DNA of 64,000 nucleotides from Candidatus Hydrogenedentota bacterium (GCA_034669905.1 JAXMOL010000007.1:128970-192969); one strand, 5' to 3'; counted from the stretch's first letter, positions 49,368-63,711 are shown. A program made the numbers and translations. The notes: generated from the letters alone by a model not told the origin.

Positions 49368-49443
<76 letters not shown>

Positions 49444-49460
49444 TTATTTTACCTCTTTGC

Positions 49461-49536
49461 GCTGGAATAGCTCAGTCGGTAGAGCGCTTCACTCGTAATG
49501 AAGAGGTCCGGGGTTCGATTCCCCGTTCCAGCCCCA
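49461..49536 (+). tRNA. tRNA-Thr (CGU)
   Basis: Acceptor GCTGGAA/TTCCAGC. Anticodon loop CTCGTAA. GGTTCGATTCC T-arm. Encoded CCA. Confidence 0.88.
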
Positions 49537-50824
49537 GTAAATGCCTGCCACGAAACGACTTACATAGATAGTTGTTTTGTGGTTTTTATTTGTCTGGCCT
49601 TCGTTATCGCCCCGTTATCTTTGATTTCCGGGATTAGCCCCCTTCCTGAACTATTCCTCGCGGGTGTTTTTGCCATCTTCGACTGCTGACTTGTCTCTCT
49701 ATTCCCGACTGATTCCCTTTCCCTCCTTGGGGTGCCTGAAGGGCTTCATTCCGTCCGCTCCACTTCCTGAGACTTCCCGAGTCGACCGCCACATTCGGCC
49801 ACGAGCCGGGCAGTCATTTACCCTTCCTGGGTCGTCACGGTAGATCGTCGACCACTCCTCCTGCGGTCGTATTGAACGACAGACTATCAATCGCCCGGAT
49901 ACCGACGCAGAGAATCACCATGGCACGACTACCTGGGTCGCCTGTAAGCCCCTACAGTGAAATGTCTTAGGTATGGTTGTTTAGGTCGAGAAAACGCGTT
50001 ACGGGGCATCCTGGGGCTTCTGAGAGGGTGTGAGTTCCATTGTCAGGCGGTCTATTGCTGCGGGATTGTCTCGGGCACTTGGGTTGTGTGCTCTTGCACA
50101 TCTGCCGGAACGGATTGATGGCCCTGAAGTGGAACATGCATTTCGGAAACGTTCCTTCTTGGCCTGGACAACGCCTGGGCCCCGGAATTCATCCCAGAGA
50201 GCCTCCGTCCACAGGCCCGAACTGCCCCATGTTGCCCGTTTTTCACTGGCTGCGTGCCCCAAATGCCCGTAATTACCCTGATTTTTCGTTCCAGAGACTC
50301 CGATTTCCTTCCTGCACGTCCAATGGCACGCTTTGCCATCCTTCGAAGGGCTCAAACGGGGGTGGAGAGGAAGGCGAACCAACACAAACCGACATTTCTG
50401 AGAGAAAGGAAGCTCGCTACGCTCACGCAAGATTGGTCCAACGGGACGCTGCGGACTGGCTGCGCCAATCCTCGCTTTAGGAGATCAACCTACCGCTGCG
50501 GCACGTCTCCGCTTCGCTGCGACACGCCTCGCCTTCGGCAGGGTTAAAAGGTGTCAACAAGTTGACCGGGGGTAGGGGGGGCAGCTGCGCTTACCGGCAT
50601 AGTCAGCACCTGGATTACAAAATCTGGCAATTTTTAAGATGGGGTTTGCTGCTCGGGGTCTTCCAGTACGGAAACAGTGTGCGCACACGGGGAGTCCGTG
50701 TGCGCTCAAAGTAGCCACACCTTCCACTCCTCCTGTGGCATTCCGGCTGCGTTGACAGTCTGGGGCGGAACCCTTATCATGGCGCGATATTCTTGATTCA
50801 GGTTACGACGTAAAGGGGGAATCG

Positions 50825-51592
50825 ATGAGCGACCACAGCGAAGCACCAACAAACGAGGAACACAGTCCGTGGTTTACACAACTCTGGGTTGTCTTGGTCA
50901 TTATCGCTGTCGTCCTATTTATTCAGTGGGGTGCATGGTGTTGGATTGAGGGGCGATATCCAACAGGCGAAGAACGTGCATTCTTTGGGGATATGTTCGG
51001 GGCCGTGAACACGCTGTTCTCGGGGCTTGCCTTCTCCATTCTTGCTTGGACCATGCTCTTGCAGCGGGAAGAACTGAAGCTCCAGCGTCGTGAGCTCCAG
51101 GAAAATCGCACCGAGTTGAAACGGACGGCAGATTCCCAACGCGACATGTTGAAAATCGCAAAACAGGAACAGGCAGACCGAGAGGCCCGAGAGTACAGGG
51201 CGGCCACACTACTCTTAAGTCGTTGGAAGAGAGATGGCAATACGCTCAATAGCGATGGCGGCTTCGAGAGCTGGCGTTTTTCCGCAACGAACCTCGGCGA
51301 GGTAGTGTCCAACGTCGAACTCTCGATGGTCAGTATGTCCGGAGTTGGGAACTATGAATTCGATTGTGACCTGATAGTACCGAAAGGGGGGAAATTGGAC
51401 CTGTTGATTTGGGTGGAGCACAGCAACTCTTCGAAAGGGATTGAGAATTGGCTCTCACTGGAGTTTTTGATTAACTACGTGGATGGCAATGGCCGCAATC
51501 GGCAGCAAAAGTACGTATTGAATACTGGAGAAGAATCAATATCCTGTACACATCTGGGAATTGATGAAGAAGAAGACGTCTTTTCCGGGTAA
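50825..51592 (+). CDS. hypothetical 2-TM coiled-coil membrane protein (paralog A)
   Basis: TM1, then GDMFGAVNTLFSGLAFSIL TM2, then a coiled coil and a C-terminal beta-rich domain. About 50% GC. Confidence 0.6.
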   Translation: MSDHSEAPTNEEHSPWFTQLWVVLVIIAVVLFIQWGAWCWIEGRYPTGEERAFFGDMFGAVNTLFSGLAFSILAWTMLLQREELKLQRRELQENRTELKRTADSQRDMLKIAKQEQADREAREYRAATLLLSRWKRDGNTLNSDGGFESWRFSATNLGEVVSNVELSMVSMSGVGNYEFDCDLIVPKGGKLDLLIWVEHSNSSKGIENWLSLEFLINYVDGNGRNRQQKYVLNTGEESISCTHLGIDEEEDVFSG

Positions 51593-51660
51593 CACCCAGC
51601 TTGTGAAAGCTCTAGAGAAGACGTTGAAACAACGTTTCCGACCAAGGGGAAGAATTAACT

Positions 51661-52362
51661 ATGAAATCGAATGGGCAGCATGAGGGATTCACGCTAACCT
51701 CCAAAAAATTGGACGGATACATCGCAGCAATTGTTACGATTTGGCTCGTCGCCACGATTGGAATACCGGTCTTTTCCTGGTTGTCGCCAGACATTGAGCT
51801 TGGAGATTTCGCGTTGCTGGGGGATAGTCTTGGCACCATTAACGCCTTTTTCTCTGCGCTGGCCGTGATTGTGGTGGTGCTGAGCCTTCGACTTCAACAA
51901 AGGGAGATCGAAGAGACCTTGGCGTTGATGCGCGCCGAGCGTTCGGAAGAGAAGGACCGCCAGTTTCGTGCGGCAACACCAATCTTGATCTCCGGGAACT
52001 TTAGACATTTGAGTGAAACGGGAGGTGGTTCCGCAATGCACTGCCTGTTGACCAATAATGGCCAGACAATATTTGATCCGACGATGACCGTTTCGAACGC
52101 CGAGGACCTAGAGCATATATCGGTAGAAACCAAGGCAGATACGATCTTGCCTAACAATTCCCATATCCAGGTTATCGTAAAGCCGATGGTAGCGTCTCAA
52201 AGCCTTCCGAAACACCTCACGATTTGTTTGACCTTGCAATGTTTTGATATCGATGGGCGCAAGCGAACGCTGCACTTTGAAGGTCGGCCCGTCGTTACGG
52301 AAAAGCTGAAGCTGACTGCCTACGATTTTCTTCCTGACTGGGGTGGTGATCGAAGCGCTTAG
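51661..52362 (+). CDS. hypothetical 2-TM coiled-coil membrane protein (paralog B)
   Basis: Same architecture and shared motifs (GDSLGTINAFFSALAV, LQQREIEE, RQFRAAT) as paralog A. Confidence 0.6.
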   Translation: MKSNGQHEGFTLTSKKLDGYIAAIVTIWLVATIGIPVFSWLSPDIELGDFALLGDSLGTINAFFSALAVIVVVLSLRLQQREIEETLALMRAERSEEKDRQFRAATPILISGNFRHLSETGGGSAMHCLLTNNGQTIFDPTMTVSNAEDLEHISVETKADTILPNNSHIQVIVKPMVASQSLPKHLTICLTLQCFDIDGRKRTLHFEGRPVVTEKLKLTAYDFLPDWGGDRSA

Positions 52363-52593
52363 TCCCCATGTAAACGACCAATCCACGGGCGTAAGCAGGG
52401 GCTATCGGTGGCTGTCTTTTCCCCCGCAGGCGATGGTATCATCGCAGGCGGTTTTTATATTCGGTTGGCCGGTGTCTTTCTGGCATGTTTGTATCGGGTG
52501 AGGCGAGGGTGAGGGTGTGTGCAAGGCCTGTGCCTCTTGCGTGGGGTGGATACCGGCGGCGTGTCGGGTGTGGGCCGGTTTTTGGGAGAGCGC

Positions 52594-54147
52594 ATGAATA
52601 CGAATGGTAATGAAATTGAATCCCGCCTGTGGGCGGCGGCGGATGAGCTGCGGGCGAATTCGAAGCTGAAGTCGTCGGAGTATGCCGCCCCGGTGTTGGG
52701 GCTGGTCTTCCTCCGCTTTGCAGACCACAAGTTCCAGGTGGCGGCGAAGGAATTGGAAGGCCAAGGCGGCGGACGGCGCAAGATTGGCCCGACGGATTAT
52801 CAGGCTCAGGGCGTGCTCTATCTGCCCGAGGCGGCCCGCTTTTCCACCCTCATCCAGATGCCCGAAGGCGGCAACATCGGCGCGGCCATCAACGACGCCA
52901 TGCGCGCCATTGAGACGGAGAATTCCGACCTCAAAGATGTCCTCCCCAAGACCTACAACCGCTTTGAGAACACCCTCCTCAAAGAACTCCTCAAGACCAT
53001 GAACTCCATCCCCATGGACATCCAGGGGGACGCCTTCGGTAAGATTTATGAGTATTTCCTGGGCCACTTCGCCATGAGCGAGGGCCAGAAGGGCGGCGAG
53101 TTCTTCACGCCCACGGCCATCGTCCAGTTGATTGTCGCCATCATCGAGCCCTTCCACGGGCGCATCTACGACCCCGCCTGCGGCTCCGGCGGCATGTTTG
53201 TCCAGTGCGCACGCTTCGTCACCGAGCACCAGCAGAACCCCAGCGCGGAATTGAGCGTCTTCGGCCAGGAAAAGACGGACGAAACCGTCCGCCTCGGCAA
53301 GATGAACCTCGCCGTCCACGGCCTCAGCGGCGACATCCGCGAGGGCAACACCTACTACGAAGACCTCCACCAGGCCCCCGGCAAGTTCGACTTCGTCATG
53401 GCCAATCCCCCGTTCAACGTGGACCGGGTGGACAAAGACCGCCTTAAGGACGACCCCCGCTTCCCCTTTGGTATGCCGCGCACGGACAATGCCAACTACC
53501 TCTGGATTCAGATGTTCTACAGTGCCCTGAGCGCCACGGGCCGGGCGGGCTTTGTCATGGCCAATTCCGCCTCCGATGCGCGCGGTTCCGAGCTGGACAT
53601 CCGCCAGCAGTTGATCCAGGCCCGCGCCGTCGATGTGATGGTAGCCGTGGGCTCAAATTTCTTCTACACCGTCACCCTGCCCTGCACCCTGTGGTTCTTC
53701 GACAAGGGCAAGGCGAAGACGCCCCGCGCCGACCAGGTCCTCTTCCTCGATGCCCGCCACCTCTACCGGCAGATCGACCGCGCCCACCGCGACTGGACAC
53801 CCGACCAAATCGAATACCTCGCCAACATCGCCCGCCTCTATCGCGGCGAGGCCGTGGAAAACCTCCACGGCGGCGCCGACTTGTTGGAAGAGCACTTTGG
53901 CAAAAATCCGAAATACACCGACGTGCCCGGCCTCTGTAAGGTCGCCACGCTGGACGAAATCGAGGCCCAGGGCTGGAGCCTCAACCCCGGTCGCTACGTG
54001 GGCGTCACCGCCCGTGAGGAGGACGACTTCGACTTTCTGGAGCGCCTGGAGGAGCAGAACGAGGAGCTGGAACTTCTAAACGTCGAGGCGCGGGAACTGG
54101 AAGAGCGGATCGCGGAAAATGTGGTGCAGTTGTTGGAGGCGGACTGA
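52594..54147 (+). CDS. hsdM: Type I restriction-modification methyltransferase subunit
   Basis: HsdM_N-like start ([13 protein letters not shown]). N6-MTase NPPF motif (MANPPFN). The ATG at 52594 with a GGGAGAG Shine-Dalgarno is preferred over the track ATG at 52519. Confidence 0.9.
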
Positions 54148-55970
54148 TGACGAGAGAAGTCCAATGGACACGTAAAACGGTGCTTGACTTGCTAGAAAAC
54201 GTTATCGATTACCGTGGAAGGACGCCACCAAAATCGGATACTGGCATACCATGTCTCTCAGCCGCCAACGTCAAGGGGGGCGTCGTCACAATAAAGGACA
54301 AGTTTGTTTCCCAAGAAGTATACGAGAAATGGACAACGAGGGGTTATGTTCGTCCGGGAGATGTTTTAATAACGACTGAAGCCCCGGTAGCTGAGGTCGC
54401 TCTGCTACCTGGGGATCAGACTTATCTCATTACCCGTCGAGTTATGGCCCTCCAAGTCAACCGTTCTGTGGCAGACAACAAGTTTCTCATGTACAGTCTG
54501 CTGCTGGACGATAACAAGAAACAGCTTGAGGGACTCTCCCACGGAGCCACGGTGCCAAGGTTATTCAAGGAAGACATCTTGGACTTCAAGTTACTGGTTC
54601 CGCCCCTGGCGACGCAGCGGAAGATCGCGGCGGTCCTCTCGGCCTACGACGACTTGATCGAGAACAACCTGCGGCGGATCAAGATTCTGGAGGCGATGGC
54701 GCAGAACCTCTACCGCGAGTGGTTCGTCAAGTTCCGCTTCCCCGGCCACCAGCACGCCCGCTTCGTGGACTCCCCCCTGGGGCCCATTCCCGAGGGCTGG
54801 GAGGTGAAGACGCTGGGGGAAATCGCGACTATAACTATGGGCCTTTCCCCGAAAGGTGATACCTATAACAACGAAGGCGACGGTACGCCGTTGGTAAATG
54901 GTCCAGTTGAATTCGGCGAACGATTTACGAAACGGGTCAAATGGACAACTTCACCAAAGAAACTTTGTAGTGAAGGTGACCTTGTTGTTTGTGTAAGAGG
55001 ATCGACAACGGGAAAATACGTAAAGAGCGATGGCGTGTATTGTTTGGGTCGTGGTGTTTGCGGACTAAGCAGTGAATATCAGTGTTTCCTAGACCAACTC
55101 TTCGAGAGCGAATTGTATACTCTCCTCGGCATGACAAGTGGTTCTACGTTTCCGAGCTGGACCGGACCACAATTAAAATCTCATAAGGTGCTTGTCCCTC
55201 ATGTAAATTTGCGTGCAGAATTCGACAAAGCAATTCAACCTATGAACGCAGCGGTCTTCAAATACACGCGGAAAAATGCGGTCCTCCGCCAAACCCGCGA
55301 TCTCCTCTTGCCCAAGCTCATCTCTGGCGAACTGGACGTATCCGAGCTGAACATCACCGTCCCCGAGGAGCTGGCCGCCAGCCCCGCCCCTTTGGAAGAC
55401 ACCGGTAGCCCGGCGCAGGTAACGGCACCCAAAGCGAGCCCCGCCCCCGCCCCGAAGGCCGCCGAGGAACCGGAAGCCTACAGAGAAGGCGACACGGAAG
55501 CCCCCACGGCCCCGCGCCCCATTGAGGACTGGGACACCGACGACGTGATGGCGGCCTTCCGCCAGGCCGCCCGGAAGACGGGCCAGACGGACCGCGCCAC
55601 CCTCCTCAAGGCCGTGTCCCGTGAACTGGGCTATGGCCGACTGGGTCCGAAGATGAAGACCGTATTGAAAGGGCACCTCAAGGCCGCCATCCGCCGTCAC
55701 ATCATCGGCACCGACGGCGGTGCCACGGTGTGGCCCGAAACGGTCACCATGGACGAATTCGAGCGCGACGAGCTCGTGGCCACCTTCCGTTCCGTCATGA
55801 AGAAGGGCCCCCGCTACGACCGGGAGGACATCCACCGCGCCGTCGCCAACTACCTCGGCTTCCGCCGCCTCACCGAAAGCGTAAAAGCCCCCATCAAGTC
55901 CGCCATCAACGGAGCGATAAGGCGGGGTGTGCTGGGTTATGAGGGAGATGTGTTGTGGCGGGAAGAGTGA
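54147..55970 (+). CDS. hsdS: Type I R-M specificity subunit with ~200-aa C-terminal extension
   Basis: Two target-recognition domains flank conserved LPPL..Q..I...L and central repeat helices. Residues from about 405 form a Pro/Ala-rich linker plus a basic helical domain of unknown function. Confidence 0.85.
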   Translation: MTREVQWTRKTVLDLLENVIDYRGRTPPKSDTGIPCLSAANVKGGVVTIKDKFVSQEVYEKWTTRGYVRPGDVLITTEAPVAEVALLPGDQTYLITRRVMALQVNRSVADNKFLMYSLLLDDNKKQLEGLSHGATVPRLFKEDILDFKLLVPPLATQRKIAAVLSAYDDLIENNLRRIKILEAMAQNLYREWFVKFRFPGHQHARFVDSPLGPIPEGWEVKTLGEIATITMGLSPKGDTYNNEGDGTPLVNGPVEFGERFTKRVKWTTSPKKLCSEGDLVVCVRGSTTGKYVKSDGVYCLGRGVCGLSSEYQCFLDQLFESELYTLLGMTSGSTFPSWTGPQLKSHKVLVPHVNLRAEFDKAIQPMNAAVFKYTRKNAVLRQTRDLLLPKLISGELDVSELNITVPEELAASPAPLEDTGSPAQVTAPKASPAPAPKAAEEPEAYREGDTEAPTAPRPIEDWDTDDVMAAFRQAARKTGQTDRATLLKAVSRELGYGRLGPKMKTVLKGHLKAAIRRHIIGTDGGATVWPETVTMDEFERDELVATFRSVMKKGPRYDREDIHRAVANYLGFRRLTESVKAPIKSAINGAIRRGVLGYEGDVLWREE

Positions 55971-56131
55971 TGTGGCGACTCTTGCTCTTTCAATACCTAG
56001 AGCCGTTAGCCAATTAACCCTAGAAATGAGAGTAGAGTTCAATGCTCAAGGGAAAGTGTAAAGAGTCTCGGAGTAGGCTACGTGAAGACACTCCGGATGC
56101 GACAGGCTCAGTTTAGGCCCAAAACGATCTT

Positions 56132-56920
56132 ATGTACGGAGGCACAATGGTTCCATTTGAAGATGACAATACAAAGGCCTATGTTTATCTCTTGCGAATC
56201 GAAATTGCCCTACGAGAGCTTCTTCGAGCTTCGCTCGAATCCGAATTCGGGCAATCCTGGAGAAAAAGGCTCCCTGGCGAACTGTTGAAAAAGATCAAAT
56301 CTTCGCAGTCAGAAGAGCATCGTCCCCAGTTTGATTTCGTCCGTTTGGGGCCGCTCTACTACTTGACATTTGGAGAATTACTTATCCTTCTTAAACAAAA
56401 ATCGGGGCAATCCGTAGCTCAACGTTTGGGTGGAGATGGAATCCTTAAGCAACTAGAATGTGTCTTCTCGCCACGCAATGCGATTTGCCACTCGCGACCT
56501 GTATCGTCGGTAGGGTTACAAGCAATAAGCTTGCTCTATGTTGAGATAGAGACAGCACTTTCAAAGGAGGTCTTGGTCCAGCTCGTATCGCAACCAGATA
56601 CGGGGCTCACTCAAGTCGATGTTGCCAAGGGCCTCGTTCCCGCCCTCAAAAACTTCATGGCCGATTTGCCAAATCTACCGTCCACACTCCCGGTTCCTGA
56701 AGCGTTTGTAACTGCGAAGAATCAGTTCTGGTGGGCGGACGATGAGCTTGCTGGATTCGATCGTTCACGAGTCGAAGCCGTGATTGGCCTGGTTCGTGAC
56801 TACAACAACCTTCCTGTTGGTGTTGGATCTGCTGGAACACGACTCACATTCTGCGAGCGGAATGCCCTCAAAGAACGGATTAAAGACGCAATAGCCGAGT
56901 TGGAGAGTACGACACTATGA
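56132..56920 (+). CDS. Swt1-like HEPN domain protein (predicted RNase)
   Basis: FGQSWRKRLPGELLKKIK...FGELLILLK...LKQLECVFSPRNAICHSRPV matches the Swt1-HEPN layout with an R-x4-H motif. About 48% GC. Confidence 0.6.
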   Translation: MYGGTMVPFEDDNTKAYVYLLRIEIALRELLRASLESEFGQSWRKRLPGELLKKIKSSQSEEHRPQFDFVRLGPLYYLTFGELLILLKQKSGQSVAQRLGGDGILKQLECVFSPRNAICHSRPVSSVGLQAISLLYVEIETALSKEVLVQLVSQPDTGLTQVDVAKGLVPALKNFMADLPNLPSTLPVPEAFVTAKNQFWWADDELAGFDRSRVEAVIGLVRDYNNLPVGVGSAGTRLTFCERNALKERIKDAIAELESTTL

Positions 56921-59196
56921 GTCAGCAAAAAAAACAAAAACTCCCTCCAAACCCATTCAAACTCAAACCAATCAGAAATCTTGAGGACTTGGCAGGGCGT
57001 TCACAGGAGCGAAAGAAGATACGATATTACCTAAATCTTACTGCCTCGGGGGATAGTCCGCACTTGGCCTTGATCGGGCAGAGAGGTGTGGGCAAGACGA
57101 GTTTACTCAACGGGGCAGAGTCTATCGCAAGAGAGTTGAAACTACATCCAGTACGCTTGGACATGAACGAGCTGAAGGCAGAATCTCCAGGGAGGTTTTG
57201 GCAGGACTTGTACCAGGGTTTGGCCTTGTCAATGGCCAAAGTAGGATGTTGGGGTGGTGAGCAGGGAAAACTCTATGGTGAACTCTTAAGAATGATTCAC
57301 TCTCGACAACCAGGAGATATCGAGAATGCAGTAATACAGATTCCGTACCTATTTTCATGCCACCAAGGAGACATAGACAGTTTTGAATGTCCGGATGCTC
57401 TCGTGGTCAACGATATTAATATCTGTTTAACGGAGTTGAAGACTAAAGGGTTTGCCGGCATCGCTTTGCTAATTGATGAAGCCGATTGCTTGGGTAAGAA
57501 CGTTGCGCTAATTCAGATGTTCCGTAATATCTTTCAAGCCGTCGAGGGCTGCTCTCTGGTCCTGGCGGGAACCGAGGCTGTGTTCCCGTCACTATCGGAA
57601 GTTTTTTCGCCGATTCCGCGACAGTTTCATCGAATTGATGTGAAGCCATTTGCCGACATGTCGGATACGATGGAACTAGCTACCAGACCTCTTCGGGAGG
57701 CGGACAGTCGAATTCTTCCAGATTTCGAGTCATGCAAAGAGTTACACGCGCTGTGCGGGGGGGCACCTGATGAAATCCAACTCTATTGCCATCACATGTA
57801 TCGTAGCGTAGAGGATGACTCCTCCGAGTCAATGACTCTGTCGCCACAGGTTTTTCGCGAAGTGCTTTGCGCGTACCGTGCGAACACTCCAGAAAACCTC
57901 GACTCAGTCCTAAACGCAATTGAACGATTGCCGGACAGACTGCTATTTCGCTCAAGGTGGGTGTCACGAAGGGAACTGACGCTTGAAGAGAATATTCAGG
58001 TTACAACGCTAATTGCCGAACTTGATGATAGTGAAGAACTACTAGAGGAAAAAAAGAAGCAAATTTCCGAAGAGATTTCCGAGGGGTATCAAATCCTTTT
58101 TAATGCTGGGATTACCAGTGCTAGCAACCGTATTCGGCTTGCGGGAACCCCCCTAACTTCGGGGTTCTGGAAGTCATTTGTTAAGGCGGAAAGAAATGCG
58201 AAGTGGTCTTGGAACGACAATTCCTTCGCAGAGAACTTGGAACGCATATTTGCTCGTGCGATAAACAAGACCTGCGGACAACTACCTATTATCAATATTC
58301 CCCAAAAGGATGATGCTATCAGGAAATTGGCCAAACTTCGCGAGGGAAAATCTGTCAGTGAGATTGATGATGCTTTTGGGGCGCTCCTATTCACTTGCCT
58401 TATCGCCCGAGAAACCAATGCTACAACGGCTGTTGACTTGGGCCTTGAAATGGAATCTTGCTTCGGTCGCCGAAACTTTGTGGTGCGATTACTTGAGACG
58501 AAGGGAACAAAACTCCAAAAGGACGCGGTCATCCGATGGCTAGATACTCGAAAGTCGATGCTTGACGACTACCGAATCTCTCTATCACTCACACAATTTG
58601 AGCATTGGACAGTTCCTACGAATGAAGAATTGCATAGACTCGGGAGACTTTCGGGACATCAGTTTTTTCTAGACGAATTCGGACCGTCAGAAATGGAGAT
58701 TGCGGTCGATAAGTTTGGGTCTGGAGACGTCCAAGGTTGTATCGATCTGTTCGAACGAATGCTTGCAGACAAGGAAGATCCCCACATCCGAAATAACTTG
58801 GCTTTCTGTCAAATAGTCACCGGGAATATTCAGGATGGACTAGAAAATGCCGACCGAGCACTTCAAGTCGATAATCTTCCACTTTTTGAATTGAATAAGG
58901 GAGTCGCAGAGATCCTTTTGGGCGATTCTGAGTCGGGGCTTGAATCTCTACGTCACGCACTTGAGCGACTCCGTTCGTTAGATGATCCGGACGCTTTCGA
59001 AGCTAGTTACAATATGGTTATTTCGGAGAATGGCGTCGAAGTAAGTTGTCATGAGAATCTGCCTGTTGACGCTGCGCTCCTACTAAATCTCTATCGAATT
59101 GGTGAGCTATCGGAATCAGAACTACAGGAGGAATTGAGCAGAAGGAATCCCGACAGTGTTTCTGATTGGATGGCCATCGTGCTCGGGCCTAAGTAG
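56917..59196 (+). CDS. AAA_16/STAND-type P-loop NTPase with C-terminal TPR-like repeats
   Basis: LAGRSQERKKIRYYL then Walker A GQRGVGKTS. Walker B ALLIDEADCL. C-terminal helical/TPR repeats. 4-nt overlap with the HEPN gene. About 47% GC. Confidence 0.7.
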   Translation: MSQQKKQKLPPNPFKLKPIRNLEDLAGRSQERKKIRYYLNLTASGDSPHLALIGQRGVGKTSLLNGAESIARELKLHPVRLDMNELKAESPGRFWQDLYQGLALSMAKVGCWGGEQGKLYGELLRMIHSRQPGDIENAVIQIPYLFSCHQGDIDSFECPDALVVNDINICLTELKTKGFAGIALLIDEADCLGKNVALIQMFRNIFQAVEGCSLVLAGTEAVFPSLSEVFSPIPRQFHRIDVKPFADMSDTMELATRPLREADSRILPDFESCKELHALCGGAPDEIQLYCHHMYRSVEDDSSESMTLSPQVFREVLCAYRANTPENLDSVLNAIERLPDRLLFRSRWVSRRELTLEENIQVTTLIAELDDSEELLEEKKKQISEEISEGYQILFNAGITSASNRIRLAGTPLTSGFWKSFVKAERNAKWSWNDNSFAENLERIFARAINKTCGQLPIINIPQKDDAIRKLAKLREGKSVSEIDDAFGALLFTCLIARETNATTAVDLGLEMESCFGRRNFVVRLLETKGTKLQKDAVIRWLDTRKSMLDDYRISLSLTQFEHWTVPTNEELHRLGRLSGHQFFLDEFGPSEMEIAVDKFGSGDVQGCIDLFERMLADKEDPHIRNNLAFCQIVTGNIQDGLENADRALQVDNLPLFELNKGVAEILLGDSESGLESLRHALERLRSLDDPDAFEASYNMVISENGVEVSCHENLPVDAALLLNLYRIGELSESELQEELSRRNPDSVSDWMAIVLGPK

Positions 59197-59223
59197 ACAA
59201 ACGATTCAAGGGCAGCATTCAAT

Positions 59224-62200
59224 ATGTCTTATACTTACAGCGAAGACGCCCTGGTGGAACAACCGGCGATTGCCCTGCTCGGGGAACTGGGTTGGGAGAC
59301 GATGAACGCCTATCAGGAGTTTGCCCATGGGGCGAGCGTGCTGGGCCGGGAAACCCGGAATGAAGTCATCCTGACACAACGGTTGCGTCCGGCGTTGGAG
59401 CAGTTAAACCCGGAGTTGCCCCCGGCGGCCATCGATGAAGCCGTGACGGCCCTGCAACGGGACCGCTCGCGCATGAGCCGGGTGGCGGCCAACAAGGAAA
59501 TTTACCACGCCCTCAAGAATGGGGTCCGTGTCACGGTTCCGGACCCCGAGGGGGACGGCGAGATGGTGGCCTTGGTGCGGGTGGTGGACTGGGACATCCC
59601 GGAAAACAATGACTTTCTGCTTTGCTCTCAACTTTGGGTCGCAGGCGAGATGTATACCCGTCGCCCGGACCTCGTGGGCTTCGTCAATGGCCTGCCCCTG
59701 CTCTTTATCGAGCTGAAGGCGGCGCACAAGGGGCTGGAATCGGCCTATAAGGGCAATCTGCGGGATTACAAGGACACTATCCCCCACCTCTTCTGGGCGA
59801 ACGCCCTGATTATCCTTTCCAACGGCAGCGAAAGCCGCCTGGGGAGTGTCTCGGCGGGTTGGGAACACTTTGCCGACTGGAAGAAGATTGGCAGCGAGGA
59901 AGAGACCGCGACGATTTCCCTGGAGACCATGTTGCGGGGAACCTGCGCGCCGGAGCGCTTTCTGGATATTGTGGAGAACTTCACCCTCTTCCAGGATGTG
60001 CCGGGCGGTCAGGTGAAGCTGGTCTCGAAGAACCACCAGTATCTCGGTGTGAACAGCGCCCTGGAAGCCTTGGCGAACGTGCAGGAGCGGGGCGGGCGTC
60101 TGGGCATATTCTGGCACACCCAAGGCAGCGGCAAGAGTGTGTCCATGGTCTTTTTTGCCCAGAAGGTACTCCGCCGGGTTCCCGGCAACTGGACCTTTGT
60201 CGTGGTGACCGACCGCAAGGAACTGGATACCCAGATTTACAAGAATTTCGTCTCGTCGGGCGTGGTCACCGAGGAAGGTGCCCAGGCCACGAGCAGCGCA
60301 GGCTTGCGGCAACTCCTCGCGGAAGACCACCGCTATGTCTTCACCCTGATTCATAAATTTCGGACGGAGCCGGGCACGGCGCACCCCGTGCTCTCTACGC
60401 GTAGCGATATTATCGTCATTGCCGACGAGGCCCACCGGAGCCAATATGACACGATGGCGCTGAACATGCGCACGGCGCTGCCCAATGCCGCCTTTCTGGC
60501 CTTCACCGGCACCCCCCTGATTGTGGGCGAGGAAAAGACGCGGGATGTCTTTGGGGACTATGTCAGCGTCTACGACTTCCGCCAGTCGGTGGAAGACCGG
60601 GCCACGGTTCCGCTGTATTACGAGAATCGCATTCCCGAGCTCCAGTTGGTGAATGAGCATATCAATGAAGACATGGAACGCCTGCTGGAAGACGCGGAGC
60701 TCGACGAGGAGCAGGAGAAGAAGCTGGAGCGGGAGTTTGCGCGGGAATATCACCTGATTACGCGGGACGAGCGTCTGGAGGCCGTGGCCAAGGACCTCGT
60801 GGACCACTTCATTGCGCGGGGATTCCAGGGCAAGGCCATGATGATCTGCATCGACAAGGCCACGGCGGTGCGGATGTATGACAAGGTACAGCGGGCGTGG
60901 GCGGAGCGGCTGGCGGAGGCGGAGGCCGATTTTGACGCGTGGTGTGAGCTGCCCGGCTACGTGATGGGCCCGGAGGAGGAGCCCCCCGAATTGCAGCATG
61001 AGCAGGCGCTGAAGGACCGGATACGTTCGCTCAAGGAGATCGACATGGCGGTGGTGGTGTCGCAGGCCCAGAATGAGATTCGGGATATGAAGGCGAAGGG
61101 GCTGGATATCCTCCCCCACCGGAAGCGCATGGTGGAGGATGACCTGGAAACGAAGTTCAAAGACCCGAAGGATGATCTCCAACTGGTTTTTGTCTGCGCC
61201 ATGTGGATAACGGGCTTTGACGTGCCGAGTTGTTCCACGCTCTATCTGGACAAGCCTATGCGGAACCACACGCTCATGCAGACGATAGCGCGGGCCAACC
61301 GCGTCTTTGCGGGCAAGGTCAACGGGTTGATTGTGGACTATGCGGGGGTGTTCCGAAACCTGGAGAAGGCCCTGGCCATCTATGGCGGAGGTGGTGCCAC
61401 GGAGGGCGGCGAGGACGCAGGTGGTGGGAATCCGGTGGCCGATAAGGGCGTGCTGGTCACGGCGCTGACAGAGGTGATTGCGGAGACCCGCGCCTTGTGC
61501 GAAGAACACGCGGTGGACCTTTTGGCCATCCATGAAGCCGAGGGCTTTGACCGTATCAAGTTAATGGAGGATGCTGTCGAGGCGCTGTTGGTAACTGAAG
61601 CTGTAAAGCGGCGCTACCTGGACCTTTCAAACGGCGTGAAACGGCTCTATAAGGCCATCTTGCCCGATGATTCGGCGGAGGCCTTCGCGGGGGATGTGTT
61701 TGCTATTCAATACGTCGCCGAAAAGATTCGGGCCAAGACCGAAGCGCCGGACATTTCGAGTGTGATGCAGGATGTGGAGGAGCTGCTGGACCAATCCATT
61801 GCCACGGAAGGCTATGTGATTCGCGAAGGCAAGGCGGACTACGGCGAAGAACACTGGATCGACCTGAGCAATGTGGACTTCGACGCGCTTGCTGCCCGGT
61901 TCAAAATCGGGCGCAAGCGAACGATGAGCGAGCAGCTCAAGGTAAGCGTCGCGCAGAAGGTTATCGACATGGTGCGGCAAAACCGGACCCGCATCGATTT
62001 CATGGAGCGTTTCCAGGCGATGATTGATGCCTACAACGCGGGCAGTCTGAATGTCGAAGAATTCTTTAGCCAGTTGGTGGCCTTTGCCCGGAGCCTGGAT
62101 GAGGAAGAACAACGGGGCGTAAGCGAAAACCTGACTGAAGAAGAACTGGTCATCTTTGACCTGTTGACGAAGCCTGCTATTGAGCTGTCGGAAAAGGAAC

Positions 62201-62445
62201 GGGAGAAGGTGCGGTCGGCGGCCCGGGAAATGCTGGAAACGCTCAAGGCGGGCAAGCTGGTCCTTGATTGGCGCAAGCGGCAACAATCACGGGCCGAAGT
62301 ACGCGTGGCCATTGAGACCGTACTGGATGCGCACCTGCCGAGAGCCTACACGCCGGAGCTTTTCGAGCAGAAAGCCACGGAAGTCTTTCAGCACGTCTAC
62401 GAAGCGTACTACGGGGCGGGGCGCGGTGTGTATTTTGGCGCGTAG
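59224..62445 (+). CDS. hsdR: Type I restriction endonuclease subunit
   Basis: HsdR_N (FIELKAAHKG). SF2 helicase motifs (WHTQGSGKS, DEAHRSQ). C-terminal DUF3387-like region. 1073 aa. The 709-aa antisense ORF 59404-61533 is an artefact. Confidence 0.92.
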   Translation: MSYTYSEDALVEQPAIALLGELGWETMNAYQEFAHGASVLGRETRNEVILTQRLRPALEQLNPELPPAAIDEAVTALQRDRSRMSRVAANKEIYHALKNGVRVTVPDPEGDGEMVALVRVVDWDIPENNDFLLCSQLWVAGEMYTRRPDLVGFVNGLPLLFIELKAAHKGLESAYKGNLRDYKDTIPHLFWANALIILSNGSESRLGSVSAGWEHFADWKKIGSEEETATISLETMLRGTCAPERFLDIVENFTLFQDVPGGQVKLVSKNHQYLGVNSALEALANVQERGGRLGIFWHTQGSGKSVSMVFFAQKVLRRVPGNWTFVVVTDRKELDTQIYKNFVSSGVVTEEGAQATSSAGLRQLLAEDHRYVFTLIHKFRTEPGTAHPVLSTRSDIIVIADEAHRSQYDTMALNMRTALPNAAFLAFTGTPLIVGEEKTRDVFGDYVSVYDFRQSVEDRATVPLYYENRIPELQLVNEHINEDMERLLEDAELDEEQEKKLEREFAREYHLITRDERLEAVAKDLVDHFIARGFQGKAMMICIDKATAVRMYDKVQRAWAERLAEAEADFDAWCELPGYVMGPEEEPPELQHEQALKDRIRSLKEIDMAVVVSQAQNEIRDMKAKGLDILPHRKRMVEDDLETKFKDPKDDLQLVFVCAMWITGFDVPSCSTLYLDKPMRNHTLMQTIARANRVFAGKVNGLIVDYAGVFRNLEKALAIYGGGGATEGGEDAGGGNPVADKGVLVTALTEVIAETRALCEEHAVDLLAIHEAEGFDRIKLMEDAVEALLVTEAVKRRYLDLSNGVKRLYKAILPDDSAEAFAGDVFAIQYVAEKIRAKTEAPDISSVMQDVEELLDQSIATEGYVIREGKADYGEEHWIDLSNVDFDALAARFKIGRKRTMSEQLKVSVAQKVIDMVRQNRTRIDFMERFQAMIDAYNAGSLNVEEFFSQLVAFARSLDEEEQRGVSENLTEEELVIFDLLTKPAIELSEKEREKVRSAAREMLETLKAGKLVLDWRKRQQSRAEVRVAIETVLDAHLPRAYTPELFEQKATEVFQHVYEAYYGAGRGVYFGA

Positions 62446-62485: not shown

Positions 62486-62665
62486 GTGTCGATAATTCTG
62501 ATGCTCAATATGAAGGGTGGCGTGGCAAAGACGACCAACGCCGTGGCGATTGCGGAGTGCCTGGCGGACCAAGGGCGAAAGGTGCTGGTGATTGACGCCG
62601 ACCATCAGTGCATGGCGAGTGAGCTCTTAATTGGGGAAGACCGGCTTCTTCGGTGTGAGAAGTGA
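62486..62665 (+). pseudogene. truncated ParA/MinD-like ATPase (N-terminal 59 aa only)
   Basis: Deviant Walker A MKGGVAKTT...VLVIDADHQ followed by an early stop. Confidence 0.5.
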
Positions 62666-63186
62666 AGAGGATCGCTCTGTTTGTGTCATCCGCCTCTACA
62701 CGGGTCAAAACTGCCGATAGTCCCTGCCTGAGAACTGTCCACTGCACTTGAGTAAACCTTATCCGTAAACCTTAGCATTAGTAGTTCAGAGCTTTTCAGG
62801 TATCCGTAGGTAATAGAGAAGGGGGGAAGTGGAGTCGCGTATTTATGTACTTCAAGTGCCATAAGCCTCCGAAACTTGGTCCCCATGGGTTGTCTTGCGG
62901 CTTTTGCGTAGTCTTCAGGTCTTGAGCAAGTAAAACGGTAGCCTATCTAGAGTAATGATTTATCGGAGTTATAAGTCGAGTGGTGAATGCTTGAGAATAT
63001 TTTCAGGACCTTCCCCAATAAATCGTAGTCTTTTTCTGTAAGTTCCTTTCCCCCAGTCACCTACCGGTGTGGAGAAGTGGAACGGGCATTTTTTGGGTAA
63101 TGTTTATAAGATTTGAAGCGGACTCCTCTTTGGGTCAGAATTTGGTTGTCAAAGGCCTAAGTCTAACCCTACCAAGGAGCCCGCCC

Positions 63187-63711
63187 ATGAATAGTAGCAA
63201 GATTGCCTTCAATTTGCGCAAGCGTATCGGTCGTTTTTCGGGTAATGTCTCTAAGAGCCTTTGTTTACCGGCCCAACACTTCGTCGGTGATATGGTTTAC
63301 GGGATTCAGGCGTCGCAGTCGGTGATGCTCTCGGAAGTGGGAAGGGCGTTGGAGGAAGATATCGCGATGATTAAGACGGAGGAGCGTCTTTCACGCAATC
63401 TACAGCGCCCTGACCTGGAAGATACGGTTCAGGACAATGTAATGGCCATGGCAGCAGGGCATATCGGCCAGGACACCCTACTCATTATTGACCCAAGTGA
63501 TATCACCAAAAAGTACGCCAAAAAGATGGAGTATCTGTCGACCGTTCGTGATGGGAGCGCGCACGATTTTGGTCAGGGTTACTGGACGTTGCATATTGTG
63601 GGAACCGACCTGGATTCCAAGAAGATCGTGCCCTTGTATCAACGGTTAAGAAGTGGACCCCGAAAACTGGACAGTGCGTTAAGTGTATCTCCTGACGTAT
63701 TCTTTCAATGA
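63187..63711 (+). mobile_element. IS4-family (IS10-like) transposase N-terminal fragment
   Basis: LLIIDPSDITKK...DGSAHDFGQGYWTLH matches the IS10 LVVDWSDIREK first-Asp region. The rest of the DDE domain is absent. Confidence 0.5.

Follow-up and report, generated by a model that had tools for sequence, protein, structure and literature searches.

Restriction-modification (R-M) operons with a suicidal second layer of defence (PrrC, Ronin, TgvAB) are a recognised principle, of which few modules have been characterised. HEPN genes embedded in R-M operons are an established theme (PMC3710099), and so are HEPN ribonucleases (RNases) regulated by nucleoside triphosphatases (NTPases) (PMC12839542). 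In the prr locus of Escherichia coli (EcoprrI, hsdM-hsdS-prrC-hsdR), an NTPase-controlled HEPN-type RNase lies between hsdS and hsdR (PMC3710099) and is presumed to be a second line of defence. Ronin includes a toxin restrained by HsdMS (bioRxiv 10.1101/2023.04.06.535777), and TgvAB (Vibrio cholerae VPI-2) is a two-gene defence module within a five-gene Type I operon, an arrangement present in several genera, with the module occurring also outside R-M (PMC11411939). Here, a Type I R-M operon with two cargo genes between hsdS and hsdR is described in positions 52594-62445 of a 64,000-nt stretch of Candidatus Hydrogenedentota bacterium (GCA_034669905.1, JAXMOL010000007.1:128970-192969), referred to as the window. 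The cargo, a predicted HEPN RNase and an AAA+ ATPase, forms a conserved module that probably provides back-up phage defence by abortive infection. A second defence layer within an R-M operon is a known theme; this gene pair has not been described before.

A predicted HEPN RNase and AAA+ ATPase within a Type I operon

Five open reading frames (ORFs), all in the same direction, fill the region:

hsdM, 52594-54147, plus strand: 517-aa methyltransferase subunit of the Type I system, counted from the ATG at 52594
hsdS, 54147-55970, plus strand: 607 aa
hsdS-cargo1 spacer, 55971-56146, plus strand: 176 nt, GC 0.48, of cargo-like composition
cargo1, 56147-56920, plus strand: 257 aa, Swt1-like HEPN protein predicted to be an RNase, its C-terminal domain helical and conserved
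cargo2, 56917-59196, plus strand: 759 aa, ORC/Cdc6-STAND-like AAA+ ATPase
hsdR, 59224-62445, plus strand: Type I restriction subunit, 1073 aa

The gene order and coordinates agree with the original prediction, and so does the base common to the hsdM stop and the hsdS start (54147, in gacTGATGacg), which it had pointed out.

Because of its motifs and transitive homology, cargo1 is assigned to the HEPN proteins as a divergent Swt1-like member; its active-site signature, of the RNase type, is intact, and RNase activity is predicted from it. The ORF was called at 56132-56920, and the family start corresponds to the ATG at 56147. The product has an Ex3R motif in the first helix (E19/R23, 56201-56215) and an R-N-x3-H motif (R110-H115, 56474-56491) with a polar residue after the arginine, as in the HEPN signatures Ex3[KR] and Rx4-6H (PMC3710099). 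In the family alignment the invariant residues include E19, R23, E24, P109, R110, N111, H115 and R117, and both motifs remain invariant and in the same columns when distant relatives are included. The cargo1 homologues form 168 clusters, all unnamed and all without a Pfam domain, and among 25 close homologues sub-threshold matches were found to Abi_2 (six) and HEPN_Swt1 (three). A family-profile search of 1.84 billion representatives recovered 403 relatives (50%-identity representatives); all ten distant relatives sampled from this search (E ≤ 4e-14) matched HEPN_Swt1 (PF18731), seven of them at or above the gathering score of 27.5 bits, over the N-terminal ~130 residues that correspond to the cargo1 N-terminus. 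The AlphaFold2 (AF2) model is all-helical (predicted local distance difference test, pLDDT, 89.8). Against PADLOC, cargo1 gave only a weak PDC-M34B match (1.4e-6, 26 bits) over the HEPN region, and searches of PDB sequences with the single sequence and with the family profile gave chance matches or none.

Cargo2 is, judging by its motifs and modelled fold, an ORC/STAND-like AAA+ ATPase with a variable C-terminal half, beta-rich in the middle and TPR-like at the end. It has 175 homologues, and the Walker A (GxxGxGK[ST]; GQRGVGKTS in the window, 57076-57102) and Walker B (DE; D187-E188, 57475-57480) motifs are invariant across the family. The best Foldseek matches of the AF2 model (pLDDT 88.5) are an archaeal AAA+ ATPase (2fna), a STAND-TPR protein (6mfv), Orc1/Cdc6, RADAR RdrA and NLR resistosomes, all with probability 1.00 but low template modelling (TM) scores; TPR matches were only marginal, and no match to DUF499 was found. 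The AAA+ core has 61% mean pairwise identity and the C-terminal half 28-35%, and a conserved core combined with a fast-evolving C-terminal half is the usual pattern of a sensor.

The two cargo genes are strictly paired. In the first 50 loci fetched, cargo1 is followed immediately by cargo2 wherever the contig extends past cargo1, usually with a 4-nt overlap, which in the window is ATGA (56917-56920). In the proposed mechanism, cargo2 would be both sensor and switch, and an infection cue would be recognised by the variable C-terminal region of this ATPase. Nucleotide-dependent oligomerisation would then release or assemble the HEPN domains into a composite Rx4H site, and the ensuing cleavage of RNA (tRNA, mRNA or rRNA) would arrest translation, with abortive infection serving as a second line behind restriction.

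Several observations weigh against this proposal. The window cargo1 has no HEPN match in Pfam, its assignment coming from the motifs and transitive homology described above. All Pfam matches of cargo2, namely AAA_16 (27.9 bits against a cut-off of 32.6), AAA_22 and BrxC_BrxD, are below gathering thresholds, and cargo2 has no match in PADLOC. It is from strict adjacency only that an interaction between the two products is deduced. A promoter and terminator scan of the operon gave nothing above the shuffled expectation and did not clarify the operon structure. To these is added the low GC content of the pair at third codon positions (GC3), described below, which could reflect something besides mobility.

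The pair might also be no phage sensor at all, acting instead as an addiction (toxin-antitoxin-like) module that stabilises the island, or as an accessory ATPase that modulates restriction in the manner of BrxC/BrxD, its HEPN partner binding RNA or protein without catalysis. HEPN domains do act as toxins of toxin-antitoxin systems and some are non-catalytic (PMC3710099), and cargo2 has a weak similarity to BrxC_BrxD (8e-4), with precomputed matches in some homologues too. This explanation is considered highly improbable. The invariance of R110, N111 and H115 across samples of the 403-member family argues for an active enzyme, the fast evolution of the ATPase C-terminal half is typical of sensors, and stand-alone loci have no R-M genes to modulate.

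The R-M genes around the pair form a complete and intact Type I operon (hsdM-hsdS-hsdR), for which restriction and methylation activity is predicted. For hsdM, GGGAGAG precedes the ATG at 52594; a longer ORF with a GTG start begins at 52519, and alignments with homologues start at residue 2-8 of the product read from the ATG. HsdM has the Pfam domains N6_Mtase (1e-84) and HsdM_N (5e-22), matches MTase_I of PADLOC (2e-227) and shows the NPPF motif in its translation (MANPPFN). HsdS matches Specificity_I of PADLOC (6e-69, across aa 8-400) and has two Pfam Methylase_S stretches, corresponding to the two target recognition domains (TRDs) of a Type I specificity subunit; its identity to HsdS of related loci is only 30-35%. 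HsdR scores above the model cut-off of TIGR00348 hsdR (1.5e-148) and has the Type I combination of an N-terminal nuclease domain, a superfamily 2 (SF2) helicase motor and a C-terminal domain, recognised in Pfam as HSDR_N, SWI2_SNF2, T1R_D3-like and T1RH-like_C, with GSGKS and DEAH motifs in the translation. A gap of 27 nt separates cargo2 from hsdR, and the hsdS-cargo1 junction is the sole spaced one among hsdM, hsdS, cargo1 and cargo2; other loci have a 4-nt overlap there instead of the spacer. A reading of the spacer as the remnant of a donor hsdS was rejected, the blastn and tblastx comparisons with the upstream regions of 15 loci having given no hsdS relic above chance.

Distribution and exchange of the cargo pair

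The order hsdM-hsdS-cargo1-cargo2-hsdR was found in at least 11 distinct loci of several phyla, in metagenome-assembled genomes (MAGs) labelled Ignavibacteria (beside an integrase), Verrucomicrobiaceae, Akkermansia, Didemnitutus and Actinomycetota, as well as on several metagenome contigs. In locus L021 (6177-9478), a 138-aa ORF, a Fic gene and a Schlafen/AlbA_2-HATPase_c_4 gene are added between cargo2 and hsdR, and in L026 an EcoEI-type HsdR, of another Type I family, is encoded immediately upstream of the pair. In about nine informative loci, including ones from Hydrogenedentota and Nitrosospira, no R-M gene lies within 5-10 kb of the pair. These amount to roughly 40% of the informative loci, and the pair is therefore a self-contained module, which prefers Type I operons strongly but not obligately. 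Phage and viral collections did not yield the pair; an origin from phages or plasmids was rejected, as the pair is absent from phage and viral contigs and plasmids give remote matches to the ATPase N-terminus only. In the Verrucomicrobiaceae MAG (L004/L008, 7488-9596), transposase-type domains (DUF772, DDE_Tnp_1) interrupt the hsdS of the five-gene locus or are fused to it, and the hsdM product has two additional nuclease-like domains, DUF559 and MTES_1575.

Direct evidence that the pair has been exchanged as a cassette between R-M backbones comes from the Ignavibacteria MAG (L001, 7129-16278) and the Didemnitutus MAG (L012). The hsdM, hsdS and hsdR DNA of the two loci is 89-100% identical (HsdM 98% and HsdR 97% at the protein level), and across the cargo pair DNA identity is only 61-83%, with the cargo proteins 64% and 72% identical. 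The breakpoints lie ~170 nt before the hsdS stop and ~50 nt into hsdR. A near-identical backbone with divergent cargo indicates that the pair is exchangeable as a cassette, and recombination in the conserved 3' end of hsdS and 5' end of hsdR would be the means by which it moves. As the two MAGs are assigned to different phyla, the backbone identity implies either a very recent cross-phylum transfer or mis-binning.

The position of the pair also allows a guard function of the PrrC type, in which the HsdM2S(R2) complex of the same operon would hold the pair inactive and an anti-restriction protein (Ocr, ArdA or Stp-like) would free it. The pair is placed between hsdS and hsdR exactly as prrC is, the spacing is tight or overlapping, the five-gene order is retained in ~11 distinct loci with a second Type I family linked in L026, and PrrC-EcoprrI (PMC3710099) and Ronin (bioRxiv 10.1101/2023.04.06.535777) are precedents. 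If it were true, the pair would be a second, non-enterobacterial model of anti-anti-restriction immunity. Such a guard is nevertheless judged unlikely: the loci without R-M genes have no such complex nearby, cargo alleles with 64-72% protein identity on near-identical M/S/R backbones speak against tight co-adaptation with the Hsd subunits, and the pair is not homologous to PrrC. A self-contained abortive-infection module remains the preferred reading.

Sibling Type I loci have other cargo, or none, between hsdS and hsdR, which makes the S-R junction a general cargo hotspot in this Type I family. On the Allocoleopsis plasmid (L062, 4883-7983), ParDE, a nucleotidyltransferase and an Abi_C protein are encoded ahead of HsdR, which is 55% identical to the window HsdR; on the Sulfuricurvum plasmid (L064, 4255-8001), the junction contains a 515-aa ORF of no known identity with XRE and PIN genes; and that of the Sinomonas plasmid is empty. 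Two unknown proteins (225 and 299 aa) are encoded at the M/S/R junction of a related Type I locus (L059, 3251-4805). The Abi protein of the Allocoleopsis junction was considered as a cargo1 relative and rejected, hhalign showing no relationship.

Compositional mosaic, HsdS tail and surroundings

The mosaic was assessed as GC3, with 27 large ORFs of window positions 1-49400 as background (0.706 ± 0.045, minimum 0.614). Within hsdS the following segments were distinguished:

hsdS core (aa 1-410), 54147-55376, plus strand: PADLOC Specificity_I and Pfam Methylase_S
TRD1 (approximate), 54147-54596, plus strand: core segment, GC3 0.540
Central conserved region (approximate), 54597-54761, plus strand: core segment, GC3 0.964
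TRD2 (approximate), 54762-55211, plus strand: core segment, GC3 0.473
Distal conserved region (approximate), 55212-55376, plus strand: core segment, GC3 0.691
C-terminal add-on (tail), 55377-55970, plus strand: in frame with hsdS, no stop between, GC3 0.78-0.83
Tail linker, 55377-55541, plus strand: Pro/Ala-rich, after the usual C-terminal conserved helix
Tail repeats, 55542-55970, plus strand: two tandem ~65-aa DUF3320-like repeats, visible in the tail-family alignment

The cargo genes (GC3 0.473 in cargo1, 0.471 in cargo2) are ~5 standard deviations (SD) under the background and the TRDs, like them, are far under it, as the original prediction of AT-richer TRDs and cargo had it. That prediction had also placed hsdM and hsdR near the host composition; hsdR is slightly above the background (0.762, about +1.2 SD), and hsdM is not simply host-like (0.844, about 3 SD above). 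The mosaic is confined almost wholly to third codon positions: GC at codon positions 1 and 2 is 0.47-0.51 in hsdM, the HsdS core segments, both cargo genes and hsdR, and higher in the HsdS tail (0.69 in the linker and 0.56 in the repeat domain). The TRDs and the cargo thus belong to another compositional class than hsdM, the HsdS conserved regions and hsdR, which fits TRD replacement, in support of the TRD swapping originally predicted, and an independent history of the cargo.

A recent insertion of a foreign, AT-richer defence cassette into the resident R-M system of this genome, as the original prediction had it, would produce such a mosaic. The distance of the cargo from the background and the sharp GC boundaries where hsdS ends and hsdR begins would be explained by it, and cargo-less S-R junctions are known in the family. 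It is, however, quite unlikely as the origin of the mosaic, and the recurrence of the gene order in at least 11 loci across phyla goes against it. In every five-gene locus the cargo pair is below the flanking hsdM and hsdR in GC3, by 0.09-0.39 whatever the host GC, and the mosaic is therefore a trait of the cassette family and not the mark of a recent event here. Of the pattern originally named as speaking against the insertion, the same arrangement in relatives with uniform composition, the arrangement was found and the uniform composition was not. Moreover, hsdM itself is above the host in GC3 and the whole locus is island-like, and it is the window hsdM and hsdR that are outliers among cargo-bearing loci, being 54-67% identical to the others (HsdM 63-67%, HsdR 54-56%), which are 70-100% identical among themselves, while the window cargo is within the common range of its family. 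Given this counter-evidence, the event, if there was any, was the exchange or acquisition of a pre-formed architecture. The low GC3 of the pair possibly results from incomplete amelioration after frequent transfer, or from selection on the expression of a toxic module.

HsdS has 607 aa compared with the usual ~410, the difference being the GC-rich residues 411-607 (197 aa), to which the original prediction had not referred. This tail has 35 homologues, some of them small proteins of ~139 aa and others C-terminal add-ons (E values as low as 2e-53). In the tail-family loci examined (L055-L061), relatives of the ~140-aa unit are encoded directly after MmeI-like methyltransferase/TRD genes or after a DISARM-like methyltransferase, and one forms a fusion with a half-size HsdS whose Type I locus has other cargo; none of the other cargo-bearing loci fetched has a tail of this type. 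Tandem winged helix-turn-helix (wHTH) units overlapping DUF3320 had been described (PMC3710099). A sub-threshold match to DUF3320 (PF11784) was found in 5 of 16 tail-family members (best E = 0.00097) and none for the window segment itself, which matched the C-end of PADLOC PDC-S37 in two stretches (5.8e-8). The tail-family profile gave chance matches or none against PDB sequences. A minus-strand ORF (55173-56042, 289 aa) was considered in place of the tail and rejected, as it has no family match and the plus-strand frame has the homologues. The tail unit seems to be an accessory domain, so far uncharacterised, that R-M specificity or methylase polypeptides carry. A very unlikely, speculative extension of the guard function is that the pair is a widespread two-gene defence system guarding Type I complexes, with the tail in this window serving as a dock or decoy through which the sensor ATPase would be coupled to the methylase-specificity complex, and with the RNase released by a DNA-mimic anti-restriction attack.

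The surroundings of the operon include the following features:

tRNA-Phe(GAA) and tRNA-Thr(CGT), 49368-49536, plus strand: predicted with ARAGORN, ~3 kb upstream of hsdM
Two adjacent ORFs, 50825-51592 (255 aa) and 51661-52362 (233 aa): directly upstream of the R-M operon
Truncated ParA-like ORF, 62486-62665, plus strand: 59 aa, directly after hsdR

With the tRNAs upstream, the ParA fragment downstream and the GC3 of hsdM above the host, the whole R-M locus lies in an island-like stretch, and the tRNA-Phe/tRNA-Thr site is a possible boundary. GC is 0.47-0.57 between 49.3 and 52.3 kb, in the stretch from the tRNAs to hsdM (49537-52500). Inside the window no att-like direct repeat of the tRNA 3' ends was found. 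The two upstream ORFs each encode an N-terminal hydrophobic segment, with a weak DUF6082 match only and no PADLOC match. The ParA-like ORF matches AAA_31 (2e-15) and CbiA (9e-12) of Pfam over its first 46 aa and then reaches a stop; downstream of it lies a 214-aa ORF (63067-63711) without family match. GC falls to 0.45-0.50 in this stretch, and both ORFs are likely mobile-element debris.

Comparison with known defence systems

The pair is a well-conserved, uncharacterised family, with more than 170 clusters at 90% identity per gene. It has no entry in Pfam (cargo1), no name in NCBIfam and, the weak HEPN-level match aside, no place in PADLOC v2. It is not a member of PADLOC PDC-M34, of which only PDC-M34B was matched, weakly, and nothing by cargo2; no literature on PDC-M34 was found. 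As a predicted RNase signature combined with a putative ATPase switch with a hypervariable sensor half, the architecture is testable, and the exchange of cargo between near-identical R-M backbones constitutes a natural experiment. A separate lead is the DUF3320-like tandem domain that three different R-M classes have on their specificity or methylase polypeptides. Like the HsdS add-on, the DUF3320/MTES_1575 tandem wHTH tail has two ~65-aa repeats at the extreme C-terminus; however, that tail belongs to a giant helicase-nuclease protein, whereas here the repeats are on HsdS, with relatives elsewhere behind MmeI-like and DISARM-like methyltransferases, and do not reach the Pfam DUF3320 thresholds.

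The Hma or "Type-1 BREX-related" systems (Ava_2192 type) also combine a Swt1/Abi2-clade HEPN domain with a STAND/ORC-Cdc6-type AAA+ ATPase (PMC3710099, PMC12839542) and are, like this locus, encoded with an N6-adenine methyltransferase and a helicase-nuclease. In those systems, however, HEPN is fused to the N-terminus of a DUF499 ATPase and the partners are HmaA and HmaB, whereas in this locus HEPN is encoded separately, in a protein that has a C-terminal domain of its own, and the partners are canonical HsdM, HsdS and HsdR, which sets the locus apart from Hma. Avs/NLR-like STAND ATPases and RADAR RdrA share with cargo2, judging by its structural matches, an AAA+/STAND-like core with putative repeat or sensor domains, and the putative sensor part is variable, although the scores of cargo2 against STAND-type sequence families are below thresholds. 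Avs proteins usually combine effector and ATPase in one chain, in contrast to the separate, translationally coupled HEPN gene found here.

TgvAB resembles the pair in being a two-gene module of a five-gene Type I operon that is found in several genera and also outside R-M; it is, however, a modification-dependent DNase of the GmrSD-like type, and the cargo has no such domains. The analogy to the E. coli prr locus, drawn in the original prediction, holds functionally, as a predicted HEPN RNase with an NTPase between hsdS and hsdR, and not by homology, the cargo having no PrrC-type match in Pfam, NCBIfam or PADLOC that would place it with PrrC/RloC. In PrrC a single chain joins an ABC (Rad50/SbcC-like) ATPase at the N-terminus to a HEPN anticodon nuclease (ACNase) at the C-terminus, whereas here two genes, a pair that also lives without R-M, encode a Swt1-like HEPN protein and an ORC/STAND-like AAA+ ATPase whose C-terminal region is large and variable.

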